Assembly (NCBI GenBank): GCA_016186955.1
Contig: JACPKP010000003.1
Location: 258,290-322,289 of the forward strand
Direction: 5' to 3'
Length of the DNA stretch: 64,000 bases
Source of the DNA: Candidatus Daviesbacteria bacterium
GTDB taxonomy: Bacteria; Patescibacteriota; Microgenomatia; Daviesbacterales; UBA10151
Positions 4,476 to 8,368 of this stretch are shown piece by piece. The notes below the pieces were generated by a model that ran no database searches, had not been told where the DNA came from, and saw only the letters and a program-made list of their open reading frames with translations. The position numbers were made by a program, and so were the translations under genes. Numbering within the stretch: position 1 is the stretch's first letter; the number at the start of each line of letters is the position of its first letter.

Positions 4476-5159
4476 CTAGTTAAAATCCTCAGGATTAATT
4501 TCCCAGGGTAGTACAAAACCATCATTTTCTTTTGCCAACTCGTAAAGCTTTACATGATCTTCTAAACTTTTTGCCTGGAAGTAAATTTTCCCGTCACCTG
4601 TAAATCTATCCACCTTTAATTCTAATCCTCTCCAGGTACAGTTTAAGCCATACCCCAAAGGATGCCCCGCAGTATTTTGGTTTCTTTTCTCCAACTCTTG
4701 CTTTGCCCTTTCCGTAATGTCGCTTAGTATAACTATTTGGGGGTTTGTCTGATTGGGATAAAATTTTTGCAATAATCCTCTTGAAAATGCTTCATATATC
4801 GGCGAAAATATGCCTGCAACAAAACTATCACTTCCTGCAATCATACTCCAGTCTCTCCCGCAGGCTTCTTTAGCAGCGGCAGCTGAATAAAGGATTTTCC
4901 AGTATAACCTGTGATCATCCCTGCCCTGATCCCAAACAGGCCTGCCCTTACTCTTTCTTGCAGCTATCACTGCCGGATCAGTTGGCGCTATGTGATTAAG
5001 GATTCCATCATTCCAGAGAATTTCAATAAAATCTTCCCTGGTTTGTTCATCTAAGATGAAAAAAATGTCCAAGGATTCCTGCAAAGAATCTTGCCAGGTA
5101 TATTTAGTCCGTTCGTTAAACATGGGAAAAATTATATCAAATTTTTGCACCAAAGTCAA
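4476..5159 (-). CDS. hypothetical protein (227 aa)
   Basis: ORF only; no recognisable family. Confidence 0.4.
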   Translation of the reverse strand: MTLVQKFDIIFPMFNERTKYTWQDSLQESLDIFFILDEQTREDFIEILWNDGILNHIAPTDPAVIAARKSKGRPVWDQGRDDHRLYWKILYSAAAAKEACGRDWSMIAGSDSFVAGIFSPIYEAFSRGLLQKFYPNQTNPQIVILSDITERAKQELEKRNQNTAGHPLGYGLNCTWRGLELKVDRFTGDGKIYFQAKSLEDHVKLYELAKENDGFVLPWEINPEDFN

Positions 5160-5173
5160 CCTATAGTGCGCTG

Positions 5174-6388
5174 TTATGATCTTTTTAGAGGGAGTGCAAT
5201 TGTAAAAGTTGTGCCTTTGCCCAAGGCGCTTGAGACTTTAATTTTACCCCCATGCACTTTTATAATTTGAGAGGTGATAAAAAGCCCTATGCCCAGGCCC
5301 TTTTTATATTCACCTGAACCAGATGCGCGTTTGAACAGATCAAAGATTACTTTTTGGTCTTCGGGGGAAATTCCCATACCCCCGTCACTAATTATAAATT
5401 TTGCCCAAGACCGGTCCTGGGTAATTTTGATATTAACCGGTTTTCCCGCACCATACTTTATTGCATTAGAAAAAAGGTTAGTGATTGCCTGTTCGATTTT
5501 GACCCTGTCCCACTTTCCTTTAACAGCATCTTGGCCATGAACTGTTACTTTATACTTTTTCTGCTTTAACATTTCAGAAAAACTCTGTTTTACCTGTTTT
5601 GTTATTTTAACCAGGTCAGTATCTGTAAGATTTAAATTCATTCTACCGGTTGTGATCAAAGAGACATCAAGCAGCTCACTGATCATTGAATTGATCCATT
5701 TTATCTGCTGCTGGGAATTCTCTAAGACTGCTGTTAATTGCTGGATTGAAAAATCTGCCATTGAGACGTTTCTGATGCTATTTAACATATCAGAAAGCTT
5801 TAAAAGCATTACTGTAAGAGGTGTTTTTAGTTCATGGGAGATTATGGAGAGGAATTCATCCCTGGCTTTAATTTTCCAAAGCGCAGCTTTGTGTTCATCT
5901 GACAACTTTGTAAATGCTATTGCATAAGATCTTTCCCGCTCTTTTAACCGCCTTACCTCATCACTTTTTTTGGCTAATTGAATTAAGTAAGAAATTACAA
6001 CTGATACAGATATAAAAAAAATAAGTTGAATAAGGAGTATTAAATACCCGTTGGGATTACTGAGTAGAAAGTATAGCTCCAGTGAAATAATCCCGGAGAC
6101 AAGTAGCGCCATTTTAAAGTTGGACAAAAAGGCGCTGAGGGCTGCAATGAGTAAAGAAAAAAGAAGGATAGGTGTTTTATCAGGGTAGTTTTTAAATGAA
6201 GAAATTAAAATATATATTAAAGAAGCTGAAAGTATATTGAAGCCAGTTATGAGGGCAAACCAAGAAAATTTTTGCGGAGTTATATTTTTAATACCAATCT
6301 TAGCCAGCCATTTATATGGAATGTGTTTTTTTGAATGGTTATATAAACTGATATATAGTTTGTTTTCAAAAAAACGGCTGTTTTCCAT
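5174..6388 (-). CDS. membrane sensor histidine kinase
   Basis: N-terminal multi-TM region; HisKA H-box SHELKTPL; HATPase_c N/G boxes NLFSNAIKYG, GGMGISPED, GLGIGLFI. Confidence 0.85.
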   Translation of the reverse strand: MENSRFFENKLYISLYNHSKKHIPYKWLAKIGIKNITPQKFSWFALITGFNILSASLIYILISSFKNYPDKTPILLFSLLIAALSAFLSNFKMALLVSGIISLELYFLLSNPNGYLILLIQLIFFISVSVVISYLIQLAKKSDEVRRLKERERSYAIAFTKLSDEHKAALWKIKARDEFLSIISHELKTPLTVMLLKLSDMLNSIRNVSMADFSIQQLTAVLENSQQQIKWINSMISELLDVSLITTGRMNLNLTDTDLVKITKQVKQSFSEMLKQKKYKVTVHGQDAVKGKWDRVKIEQAITNLFSNAIKYGAGKPVNIKITQDRSWAKFIISDGGMGISPEDQKVIFDLFKRASGSGEYKKGLGIGLFITSQIIKVHGGKIKVSSALGKGTTFTIALPLKRS

Positions 6389-6463
6389 TGTAATTACAAA
6401 CTATGAAAAATATAACAGATCCTGCTTCAAAAATCCAAAAGCGCCTGTCTCTTTACACAAAAA

Positions 6464-6472
6464 TGGTATAAT
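6464..6472 (+). promoter_or_regulatory. extended -10 promoter element (TGgTATAAT) for response regulator gene
   Basis: tggtataat ends 7 nt upstream of TTG start at 6480. Confidence 0.35.
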
Positions 6473-6479
6473 TTAAAGA

Positions 6480-7403
6480 TTGCAAAAAACTATCCTTGTC
6501 GTTGAAGATGACGACGAGCTGAGAAATTATTTAAAAAAAATTCTGGCTACGCATCACTATAAGGTAGCAGAGGCGGCTGATGGGGCAGCAGCGCTTGAGG
6601 CTGTTGAAAAATTTTCCCCTGATTTAGTGCTGCTTGATTTTGGACTCCCAAAAGTTCCGGGGGAAACTGTTTGTGTAAGGATTAAACAAGACCATCCCGA
6701 GATTATTGTCATTGCGCTAACTGAGAAAAAGCAAAGTAAAGATGTAGTCCACGGGTTGCAAATTGGGGTGGATGATTATATAAGCAAGCCTTTTGTGCCG
6801 GAGGAGTTAATAGCCAGAATTGATACCAGATTTAAAACAGTTCCAAATGGGAATATGGTATCCGAAGAAGAATCAAATACAAAGCAAGGGGAGGAAGCCG
6901 TCAGCAAAGGCAAGATAACTTTTAGGGAGAGCCTGGCCTTAATTGTTATAAGGATTATTTTAACTGAAGCTATTTTTGGATTTTCACTGTTTCTTTTGAG
7001 TATGCTAGATTCCCTTGCAAGCTCTTACGTAAACTTTAACCTTTTTGGTTTGTATGCCCTATTTTTTATAGCAGGATTTTTGGTTAATTTAGTAGTCATA
7101 TGGTATATTGCTTTAAAATGGACTTCAGAATATACAGAAGTATCCAGGGATGGGGTTATCAGGTATAGCGGGATTTTACATAAAAAAGAACAAAAGTTTG
7201 CCTGTAACTTTGTGGAGGCTGTAACTATTGAACAATCATTTTTAGGCCAAATTTTCAACTATGGCACAATTGAACTATATGACCCAGCTTTAAAAGAGCG
7301 CGTATATTTAATAAACATCTCAAGTCCTAAGGTATATAGTAAAAGGATAGAAAAAATTGTAGAAAAACCTGATACCCAACCCATGCCATTTGTCGCTCCG
7401 TAA
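6480..7403 (+). CDS. response regulator: receiver (REC) domain fused to two TM helices and a bacterial PH (bPH_2/YdbS-like) domain, no DNA-binding domain
   Basis: REC: LVVEDDDELR...DLVLLDFGLP...DDYISKPF; then two hydrophobic helices and RDGVIRYSGILHKKEQKFACNFVEAVTIEQSFLGQIFNYGTIEL matching bPH_2 pattern; TTG start. Confidence 0.75.
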   Translation: MQKTILVVEDDDELRNYLKKILATHHYKVAEAADGAAALEAVEKFSPDLVLLDFGLPKVPGETVCVRIKQDHPEIIVIALTEKKQSKDVVHGLQIGVDDYISKPFVPEELIARIDTRFKTVPNGNMVSEEESNTKQGEEAVSKGKITFRESLALIVIRIILTEAIFGFSLFLLSMLDSLASSYVNFNLFGLYALFFIAGFLVNLVVIWYIALKWTSEYTEVSRDGVIRYSGILHKKEQKFACNFVEAVTIEQSFLGQIFNYGTIELYDPALKERVYLINISSPKVYSKRIEKIVEKPDTQPMPFVAP

Positions 7404-7405
7404 TA

Positions 7406-8368
7406 CTAAAAATTTTGGAGAACTTGGATTAAATGCTGCAAGCTTTCCCAATTGTGTACTGATACTTGCAAGATTTGTTTTTTTGTCCTGCTCAAAGCTT
7501 GAATTTTAATATCCAAATCAGTTTTTTCTACGAGGTCGGATTTGGTGAGAAGAATGATTTCTTGTTTCCCTAAAAGCTTAGGATTAAATTTTTCAAGCTC
7601 ATGGTGGATGATTTTATAATCATTTAAAGGATTGGGGGATTGGGAGGAGATACAATGGATTAGAAGATTTACTTTCTCAATATGACCCAAAAATTTATGT
7701 CCCAACCCTTTACCTGTCCAAGCACCCTCAATTAAGCCTGGTATATCTGCCAGAATTTTACCCTCTAATACTCCTAAGTTAGGTTCCAGGGTTGTGAAAG
7801 GGTAGTCTCCTACCCGGGCCTGCGCTTTGGTAAGCTCGTTTAATAGGGAACTTTTGCCAGCATTAGGCAGGCCAATTAAACCAATATCAGCAATTAATTT
7901 AAGTTTTAGTTTTAGCTTTTTGACCTGACTTTTCAACCCGGGCTGAGCATATTTTGGAGTGGTATTTGAAGAAGATTTAAAAAAATGGTTTCCTCTCCCG
8001 CCCAAACCCCCTTTTGCCAGCAACACCCTTTGGTTTAAATGATTTATTTCAACCGTTGTACCTTCCTGATCTGTTAGAAGTGTTCCTATAGGGACTTCCA
8101 AGCTTAAGTCTTTTCCATTGCCGCCTGATTTTCTATTACTTCCTCCGGGTTGGCCATTTTGTGCTTGCCAGATATTTTTTGTTGAGAATTTGCTTAAGGC
8201 ATAAAGGTCAGAAGTTGAATTCACATAAACATCCCCACCTTTGCCCCCATCTCCTCCATCCGGGCCGGCTCCTGATTTAGGATAAAAAGACACACGTCCC
8301 GGACCGCCATTTCCTCCTAAAACAGTAATTTCTACCTCATCAATCAACATAAAGGTATGGTAACACAT
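7406..8368 (-). CDS. obg: GTPase Obg/CgtA
   Basis: Obg fold N-terminal glycine-rich GGNGGPG..GGDGGKGG; G domain GLIGLPNAGKSSLL, DIPGLIEGA. Confidence 0.9.
   Translation of the reverse strand: MCYHTFMLIDEVEITVLGGNGGPGRVSFYPKSGAGPDGGDGGKGGDVYVNSTSDLYALSKFSTKNIWQAQNGQPGGSNRKSGGNGKDLSLEVPIGTLLTDQEGTTVEINHLNQRVLLAKGGLGGRGNHFFKSSSNTTPKYAQPGLKSQVKKLKLKLKLIADIGLIGLPNAGKSSLLNELTKAQARVGDYPFTTLEPNLGVLEGKILADIPGLIEGAWTGKGLGHKFLGHIEKVNLLIHCISSQSPNPLNDYKIIHHELEKFNPKLLGKQEIILLTKSDLVEKTDLDIKIQALSRTKKQILQVSVHNWESLQHLIQVLQNF

Follow-up and report, generated by a model that had tools for sequence, protein, structure and literature searches.

We analyzed a 64,000-nucleotide (nt) stretch, here called the window, of contig JACPKP010000003.1 from Candidatus Daviesbacteria, a tiny-genome groundwater bacterium, and found in it a divergent gene pair encoding a histidine kinase and a response regulator whose C-terminal half is an integral membrane module. 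Behind its phospho-receiver (REC) domain the regulator carries a two-helix membrane hairpin and a pleckstrin homology (PH)-like domain of the bPH_2 (YdbS-like) type. This pair makes up a two-component system whose output is, unusually, integral to the membrane; it is a conserved and apparently undescribed module in bacteria of the candidate phyla radiation (CPR). We favor, with some rather than high confidence, a system that works without a transcription step and in which phosphorylation controls a YdbS-like membrane effector; signaling most likely takes place at the membrane rather than through transcription, which we regard as a reasonable inference from the architecture. A first-pass annotation of the same DNA had placed the two open reading frames (ORFs) where we find them and had proposed REC, two membrane helices and bPH_2 in place of a DNA-binding domain, a layout confirmed here by Pfam, hydropathy, AlphaFold2 (AF2) and Foldseek (Table 1).

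Nearly all response regulators, to our knowledge, have as their C-terminal output a DNA-binding domain, an enzyme or a soluble domain that binds proteins. An integral membrane module as the output is unusual, and it is conserved across Microgenomates rather than confined to a single odd gene. We found no description of the REC-bPH_2 regulator architecture in the literature, and it is absent from the 2018 archaeal census.

Table 1. Coordinates of the kinase-regulator pair and its parts in the 64-kb window, with the naturally split regulator of a related lineage (aa, amino acid residues; pLDDT, predicted local distance difference test)
Feature	Position	Strand	Description
Response regulator gene	6480..7403	+	307 aa, TTG start; REC, linker, two-helix hairpin, bPH_2
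REC domain	6492..6821	+	aa 5-114, alpha5 to ~aa 120; Pfam Response_reg, E 1.7e-29
Phospho-acceptor D53 codon	6636-6638	+	Within REC
Linker, disordered and variable	6840..6905	+	aa 121-142, ~22 residues; pLDDT below 50 (AF2)
Short beta-strand and R149-E150-S151 motif	6906..6932	+	aa 143-151, just before helix 1
Membrane hairpin	6933..7127	+	Helix 1 aa 152-181, short uncharged loop, helix 2 aa 188-216
Cytoplasmic bPH_2 (PH-like) domain	7128..7361	+	aa 217-294; predicted six strands, one short helix, C-terminal helix
Pfam bPH_2 (PF03703) match	7140-7325	+	aa 221-282; 27.4 bits (gathering cut-off 22), E 4e-6
C-terminal tail	7362..7400	+	Conserved P-x-P-F motif (P303, F304)
Extended -10 box TGGTATAAT	6464-6472	+	7 nt before regulator TTG start
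Intergenic region	6389..6479	.	91 bp between the divergent kinase and regulator genes
Extended -10 box TGTTATATT	6417-6409	-	20 nt before kinase ATG
Histidine kinase gene	5174..6388	-	404 aa; four membrane helices and kinase core
Kinase cytoplasmic N-terminal segment	within 5174..6388	-	aa 1-43, conserved LYxxxYxYSKK motif
Kinase membrane sensor region	5966..6259	-	aa 44-141; about four hydrophobic helices, short loops (hydropathy)
HisKA (DHp) domain	5648..5866	-	aa 175-247; phospho-accepting H185 in SHELKTPL
HATPase_c domain	5183..5509	-	aa 294-402; N box 304-312, G1 335-340, F 349-354, G2 364-369
Split regulator	~4580-5510 in L005 (also L004, L022)		No kinase within 4 kb

Receiver domain of the regulator

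The regulator shows all the sequence-level features of a true response regulator. Its receiver has E9/D10, D53, T81, Y100 and K103-P104-F105 in place, and across an alignment of 36 family members D53, T81 and K103 are invariant, Y100 is kept in at least 90%, position 9 is always D or E and position 10 is mostly D, which bears out the full acid pocket and conserved lysine (KPF) reported by the first-pass annotation. The signature GxDDYIxKPFxxEELIARI is OmpR/PhoB-like, the AF2 model has the five alternating strands and helices (pLDDT, 80 to 90), and the closest solved structure is that of MtrA (3nhz, 2.9e-23), with the receivers of YycF, PhoP and PhoB also close. Given this resemblance and the conservation of the phospho-transfer residues, the receiver is probably active in phospho-signaling.

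The likeness to the OmpR family ends with the receiver. All NCBIfam matches of the regulator are to OmpR-family models (best, MtrA at 1.1e-30), span only residues 1 to about 120 to 150 and score 70 to 107 bits, far below the cut-offs of 250 to 500. Neither Pfam, even at E ≤ 1, nor NCBIfam finds a DNA-binding or enzymatic domain in the regulator, and Pfam gives no match to the Trans_reg_C winged helix (PF00486) at E ≤ 1. The first-pass annotation had staked its proposal on there being no such domain in the C-terminal half, where Pfam returns bPH_2 instead. Compared with the OmpR/PhoB family (MtrA, WalR/YycF, PhoP and PhoB), the regulator thus has the same GADDY-x-KPF-xx-EL-x-AR receiver signature, the flexible linker after alpha5 and the adjoining HisKA-type kinase, but it lacks the Trans_reg_C winged helix and its output is a membrane protein. 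Lacking the winged helix, it is ruled out as an OmpR/PhoB-family transcription factor. The exact protein is listed at NCBI as “response regulator [Candidatus Daviesbacteria bacterium],” and the two Pfam domains are recorded automatically in databases on some family members. Other members (P0006, P0028, P0039, P0065, P0103 and P0282) are named “response regulator transcription factor” or “DNA-binding response OmpR family regulator” at NCBI and JGI; since no DNA-binding domain is present, transcription-factor names for this family are, on domain content, wrong.

Membrane hairpin and bPH_2 domain

The linker behind the receiver is variable, with a mean majority-residue frequency of 0.29 versus 0.74 to 0.90 in REC. 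Between REC and bPH_2 the hydropathy profile has two Kyte-Doolittle peaks (2.2 and 2.5), and the AF2 model has helices there, so the two hydrophobic helices of the earlier proposal, which was to be checked by transmembrane prediction, are upheld. In the 36 fused members, R149-E150-S151, R158, N203 and W214 show little or no variation; R158 lies in helix 1 together with a conserved E163, and N203 and W214 lie in helix 2. We observe much the same in 145 standalone relatives that consist of the module alone, which share the R149-E150-S151 motif (R149 in 121, S151 in 124) and the polar residues of the helices (R or K at 158 in 115, E, Q or D at 163 in 121 and a polar residue at 203 in 129).

Lysine and arginine are unevenly distributed around the helices, with means over the 36 sequences of 2.5 before helix 1, 0.03 in the inter-helix loop and 1.9 after helix 2. 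Because of this positive-inside pattern, and because the receiver must be cytoplasmic, the predicted topology of the hairpin is N-in/C-in, with REC and the PH domain both cytoplasmic. The first-pass annotation needs one correction, in that its PH-like module would be held at the membrane by the hairpin, the PH domain itself being, by the charge pattern, cytoplasmic rather than membrane-embedded. This agrees with the prediction for DUF304/bPH_2 proteins as membrane proteins with an intracellular PH domain that possibly form pores or transporters through PH rings (PMC2817789).

The match to the bPH_2 consensus noted from the letters of the sequence proved sound when checked against PF03703 (Table 1), and the C-terminal module alone scores 28.9 bits. 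Conservation of the bPH domain is comparable to that of REC (mean majority-residue frequency, 0.79), and the 15-residue stretch FNYGTIELYDPALKE (aa 259 to 273), which forms the PH hairpin, is invariant or nearly so. A profile of the module, built from the C-terminal 165 residues of 16 family members and searched against 1.84 billion representative proteins, matched 1,870 of them, 500 at E ≤ 1e-10. Nearly all of these proteins are 165 to 200 aa long and align over the full length of the profile; one standalone protein (P0129), for example, is 35% identical to the module over 159 aa (E 2e-34). All 145 sampled standalone relatives match PF03703 (best, 3e-15), and the position corresponding to the PxPF tail is a hydrophobic residue in the standalone family. 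Because the standalone relatives align end to end, the whole C-terminal half, helices included, is by sequence the counterpart of an autonomous protein family of about 175 aa.

An AF2 model of the module, made from the alignment of the 145 relatives, has a mean pLDDT of 93.2 and consists of a strand, two long helices and a PH-like part. When this model was compared with the PDB by Foldseek, the best matches were PTB/PH domains, including the PTB domains of ICAP1, CCM2 and Numb, and the bacterial PH structures 3DCX, 3HSA and 3B77 were among the matches (probability, 0.84 to 1.0; about 85 aligned columns; TM-score, 0.4 to 0.5 per target; E-values modest, 4e-3 to 0.2). When a sequence profile of the C-terminal module was run against the PDB, nothing meaningful came up (best E, 0.16, multicystatin), which is no surprise in this family, so that in the PDB the PH relationship is visible by fold comparison alone. 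By profile, predicted helices and modeled fold, the regulator is a true bPH_2/YdbS-like protein.

Divergent kinase and conservation of the pair

The kinase is complete, with the H, N, G1, F and G2 boxes all present. We found no extracytoplasmic or cytoplasmic sensor domain in it, only membrane helices, a region with a weak match to DUF4118 (PF13493) that stays below the cut-off (E 0.001). Kinases with few membrane helices and no extracellular domain have been linked to membrane or envelope signals. Four orthologues (L011, L013, L014 and L017) differ from the window in this region (5966 to 6259) by a 52-residue indel, and in an alignment of 13 orthologues the deletion removes two of the four membrane helices. 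The cytoplasmic N-terminal motif, LYxRxYxYSKKYxSYK, is kept in all orthologues aligned. Since the indel removes two helices and leaves the motif, the signal may be read by the N-terminal motif or by the remaining helices.

The first-pass annotation had described the kinase gene as divergent and some 90 bp away; the distance is 91 bp, and HisKA and HATPase_c domains are both found. The TTG start of the regulator is in line with its homologues, which also begin at MQKTIL. In contigs of one genome per species, 19 loci encode the module: 16 intact fused genes, one split gene, one deletion remnant and two standalone genes. An orthologous kinase stands in the same divergent position at 15 of the 16 intact fused loci, which makes the divergent kinase a real and probably cognate partner of the regulator, and the same arrangement is found on the additional long contigs L001 and L002. 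Around the fused gene we found no other conserved neighbor (L001 to L003 and the species-representative loci), and for this reason the conserved unit, as far as gene order tells, is the kinase-regulator pair. The window contains no second response regulator.

Full-length relatives form more than 120 sequence clusters, 50 to 84% identical, across assemblies of NCBI, ENA, JGI and Logan. Each fused relative whose source is named belongs to Microgenomates (Daviesbacteria, Levybacteria, Curtissbacteria and Roizmanbacteria) or carries the generic name Patescibacteria, and a second protein search with the module profile recovered mostly the same fused family and no new taxa. These results are in line with the earlier statement that REC-bPH_2 fusions are uncommon, as the named sources fall in one Microgenomates clade and no literature description was found; independent fusions may exist in other phyla. 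Some contigs are titled “uncultured Gammaproteobacteria bacterium” (L007, L008, L016 to L019, L021 and L025), which we did not accept as an occurrence outside CPR bacteria. They carry the same kinase-regulator pair, and their identity to the module of the window (49 to 81%) is the range of the Microgenomates-titled loci, so that these titles are probably generic or wrong submitter labels.

Split, REC-less and decayed variants

In a Levybacteria lineage (14 contigs) the regulator gene is naturally split within the linker, the gene for a 129- to 137-aa receiver ending 7 nt before a 169-aa hairpin-plus-PH gene in a different reading frame. Both halves are intact, and the receiver is orthologous, sharing the LPKVSGETVC...GADDYVTKPF...EELIARI motifs. 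The maintenance of an orthologous REC 7 nt upstream of a bPH gene with two transmembrane helices is sequence-level evidence for a functional link between REC and the module. Since both halves stay intact, it also argues that REC need not be covalently joined to the module and that regulation works through protein contacts, not a rigid mechanical link.

Other variants lack the receiver. In a Roizmanbacteria genome a REC-less bPH_2 gene, whose product is 29% identical to the module and which has no kinase there, lies upstream of LysM, LemA and Peptidase_M48 (HtpX-like) genes, and in two other lineages the fused regulator precedes the same genes (L024, 3971 to 6951; L001, 6001 to 11174; L016). 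This neighborhood is limited to three lineages and is absent from the window; the LysM, LemA and M48 products are all envelope or membrane proteins. There are also a closely related protein without REC and a variant (P0124) from which REC has been deleted. Together with the autonomy of the module in many bacteria, the split and REC-less variants point to REC as an add-on to a pre-existing effector: within one Microgenomates clade a free-standing membrane protein appears to have gained REC and a kinase, and its function would outlive the loss of REC.

A subgroup of standalone relatives (P0136, P0149 to P0151, P0155 and P0156) has, where the regulator has REC, a different N-terminal extension of about 70 to 80 aa. 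These extensions carry a conserved F-x-x-W-L...L-Q-D-(V/L)-Y motif and have no Pfam match. It seems that add-on domains have repeatedly been attached to the N-terminus of the bPH module. No conserved functional neighbors were found around standalone relatives, and the gene upstream of the one in L026 has no Pfam match. At L019 (3045 to 4456) a kinase without its N-terminus abuts a bPH module without REC and the start of helix 1; from its layout this looks like a decayed copy that has lost about 1 kb spanning the divergent promoter region.

Proposed mechanism and alternatives

We infer the phosphotransfer, the switching mechanism, the oligomerization and the cellular function as follows. The kinase, sensing through its two to four membrane helices and its short conserved cytoplasmic N-terminus, would autophosphorylate on H185, and the phosphate would pass to D53 of the regulator. 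Phosphorylation would then shift REC-PH contacts, or receiver pairing through the alpha4-beta5-alpha5 face, or both, and this would switch the assembly state or the activity of an oligomeric bPH_2 membrane complex; the pathway would include no transcription step. An oligomer is proposed because soluble bacterial PH domains form pentameric or dodecameric rings via edge-strand pairing (PMC2817789), and we put forward ring formation by bPH_2 proteins as a hypothesis by analogy. That the hairpin and PH modules form a ring-shaped membrane pore or peptide conduit gated directly by REC phosphorylation is a further step that we consider doubtful.

As to what the effector would do, our guess, drawn from the few bPH_2 proteins studied to date, is that it protects against membrane-active peptides or moves them. 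YdbST, part of the sigma-W envelope-stress regulon of Bacillus subtilis, protects against amylocyclicin (PMC8144471), and the enterococcal proteins DdE and DdF are needed for export of the leaderless bacteriocin EntDD14, with homologues in other leaderless-bacteriocin loci (PMC8657885). A role in membrane integrity under envelope stress is a possible alternative.

Several observations weigh against control of a YdbS-like effector by phosphorylation, or against the peptide-related role. The peptide function is drawn from distant relatives that are about 20 to 30% identical at best. The window holds neither a YdbT-like partner nor any bPH_2-like ORF besides the regulator, and at the loci examined the pair has no conserved bacteriocin or transporter genes beside it. 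No kinase is encoded within 4 to 6 kb of the fused locus L003 or of the split locus. The AF2 model of the full-length regulator shows no confident REC-PH contact (predicted template modeling score, 0.44). Set against the PhoB sequence, the OmpR-type dimer face appears to keep the hydrophobic core and the D99/R113 pair and to lose two peripheral salt bridges, a comparison that serves as a lead only.

Passive readings of the C-terminal half have to be weighed against an active one. The linker is long and flexible and one member is called CheY-like in its JGI annotation, as one would expect if the hairpin merely anchored a single-domain receiver to the membrane with the PH domain as a spacer. We find this very unlikely, since the PH domain and the polar residues of the helices are strongly constrained and the split lineage keeps its bPH gene intact beside REC even though it no longer anchors it. 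From the conserved polar residues in the helices, the nearly invariant PH hairpin, the PxPF tail and a bPH conservation at the level of REC, the module looks like an effector rather than a simple anchor, and an assembling membrane machine fits these features better. Decayed versions do exist (the L019 remnant, the REC-deleted P0124 and the split gene of L005), as they would if the fusion were a mis-assembly or a decaying gene with a non-signaling pseudo-receiver. To this we assign next to no probability, and the conservation data effectively refute it: the full-length architecture is found in more than 120 clusters from independent assemblies at 50 to 84% identity, with the phospho-transfer residues kept. 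An anti-phage defense system was also considered and rejected, as the effector module has no PADLOC match and only the receiver matches REC-containing models.

Two other explanations keep the module active and give it a different task. It could be a membrane-tethered adaptor whose PH/PTB-like domain holds a peptide motif of a soluble partner (a transcription factor, a sigma or anti-sigma factor, or an enzyme) and releases or recruits it upon phosphorylation, the transcriptional output being indirect. The best fold matches are indeed peptide-binding PTB domains (ICAP1, CCM2 and Numb) and ring-forming, edge-strand-pairing bacterial PH domains, the nearly invariant surface hairpin (259 to 273) and the PxPF tail could serve as binding site or ligand, and the natural split shows that the parts can work without a covalent link. 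We nevertheless judge an adaptor unlikely, because no candidate partner gene is conserved beside the pair in any locus examined, the standalone family keeps the same conserved motifs without any signaling domain, and the modest Foldseek E-values (4e-3 to 0.2) indicate fold, not function. Alternatively, the regulator could be an accessory or feedback subunit of the kinase, its hairpin packing against the kinase helices as co-sensor, insulator or phosphate sink, with output through another regulator. Intramembrane-sensing kinases often depend on partner membrane proteins (BceS-BceB and LiaS-LiaF), which counts in favor of such a subunit, as do the membrane location of both proteins, the absence of a sensor domain of the kinase's own and the very tight conservation of the pairing. 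Yet there is no second response regulator in the window to carry the output, the conservation of the PH domain goes far beyond the needs of an anchor or a sink, the module persists in conserved form where the kinase or REC is missing from a genome or locus, and a dedicated sink would be costly to Microgenomatia with their very few kinases (PMC10805038). On balance an accessory subunit seems distinctly improbable to us.

Relation to known systems and significance

Among known proteins, close counterparts of the regulator are the YdbS (COG3402)/DdE-type proteins of Firmicutes and Actinobacteria. They have the same module of about 160 to 180 aa, with two N-terminal helices ahead of a single cytoplasmic bPH_2 domain; the regulator differs from them by its N-terminal phospho-receiver and its pairing with a histidine kinase. 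In contrast to the YdbS/YdbT (DdE/DdF) pairs, it has no adjacent partner with three bPH_2 repeats and six helices (64-kb window and L001 to L003) and lies in no bacteriocin locus; lacking a YdbT/DdF-like gene next to it, it is not a two-protein system of this type. Sigma-W controls YdbST at the level of transcription (PMC8144471); the regulator, in contrast, would be controlled post-translationally. The soluble PHb1/PHb2 proteins (PF08000; 3DCX, 3HSA and 3B77) have a PH-like beta-sandwich with a C-terminal helix, as the regulator does, but its module belongs to another Pfam family, is about 10% identical and carries a membrane hairpin, which the soluble proteins lack.

On the kinase side, the short membrane helices without an extracellular domain appear similar to those of the intramembrane-sensing LiaRS/BceRS-type systems, and the output of the present pair is likely envelope related, as in these Gram-positive envelope stress systems. 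LiaRS/BceRS-type systems act via DNA-binding regulators on target operons; here, effector and regulator would be one polypeptide. Among CPR classes, Microgenomatia are reported to have the lowest frequency of histidine kinases (0.16 per 100 genes; PMC10805038), and with so few kinases the pair may be one of only one or two two-component systems per genome, one that seemingly bypasses transcription.

The regulator also bears on the older question of how the very widespread bPH_2 proteins work. That a bPH_2 module is found under a phospho-switch, and can be compared with split and REC-less forms that occur naturally, suggests that the activity of the module can be switched, and makes the regulator a tractable “on/off” version of bPH_2 for biochemistry and cryo-electron microscopy. 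If the pore reading were true, a two-component output would be a channel rather than a gene, possibly in one of the very few signaling systems of these minimal, host-dependent bacteria, and the system would provide a first experimental handle on the function of the large bPH_2 family.

Predicted promoters and probably leaderless genes

The two back-to-back -10 boxes between the genes (Table 1) are kept in position at orthologous loci. TG(G/A)TATAAT lies 7 to 9 nt upstream of the regulator start (ATG, GTG or TTG) in the window and at most of 16 orthologous loci, the remaining ones (among L001 to L023) having a -10 of the TATAAT or TATACT type at a similar distance. Because a conserved extended -10 lies so close to the start codon, the regulator mRNA is probably leaderless or nearly so, even with a GTG or TTG start. 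A generic scan of 5100 to 7500 for two-hexamer promoters and terminators gave counts not above those of shuffled sequence.

Next to the kinase, a near-consensus promoter (TTGACT-17-TATAAT with TG, 11 of 12 matches) is located at 5121 to 5159 on the minus strand, inside a 227-aa ORF (4476..5159) whose listed TTG start it overlaps, and an ATG follows at 5123, 7 nt after this -10. The ORF product, which has no Pfam or NCBIfam match, is judging by these signals probably 215 aa long in reality, with its own promoter, leaderless and not co-transcribed with the kinase. Across both strands of the window, 10 of 65 exact TATAAT hexamers (15%) have the start of an ORF 80 aa or longer 4 to 10 nt further on, compared with 0 to 9% for permuted hexamers. 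The starts so preceded include 3549, 6480, 5123 (minus strand) and 10842 (minus strand), a pattern which suggests that leaderless genes are frequent in the genome of the window.

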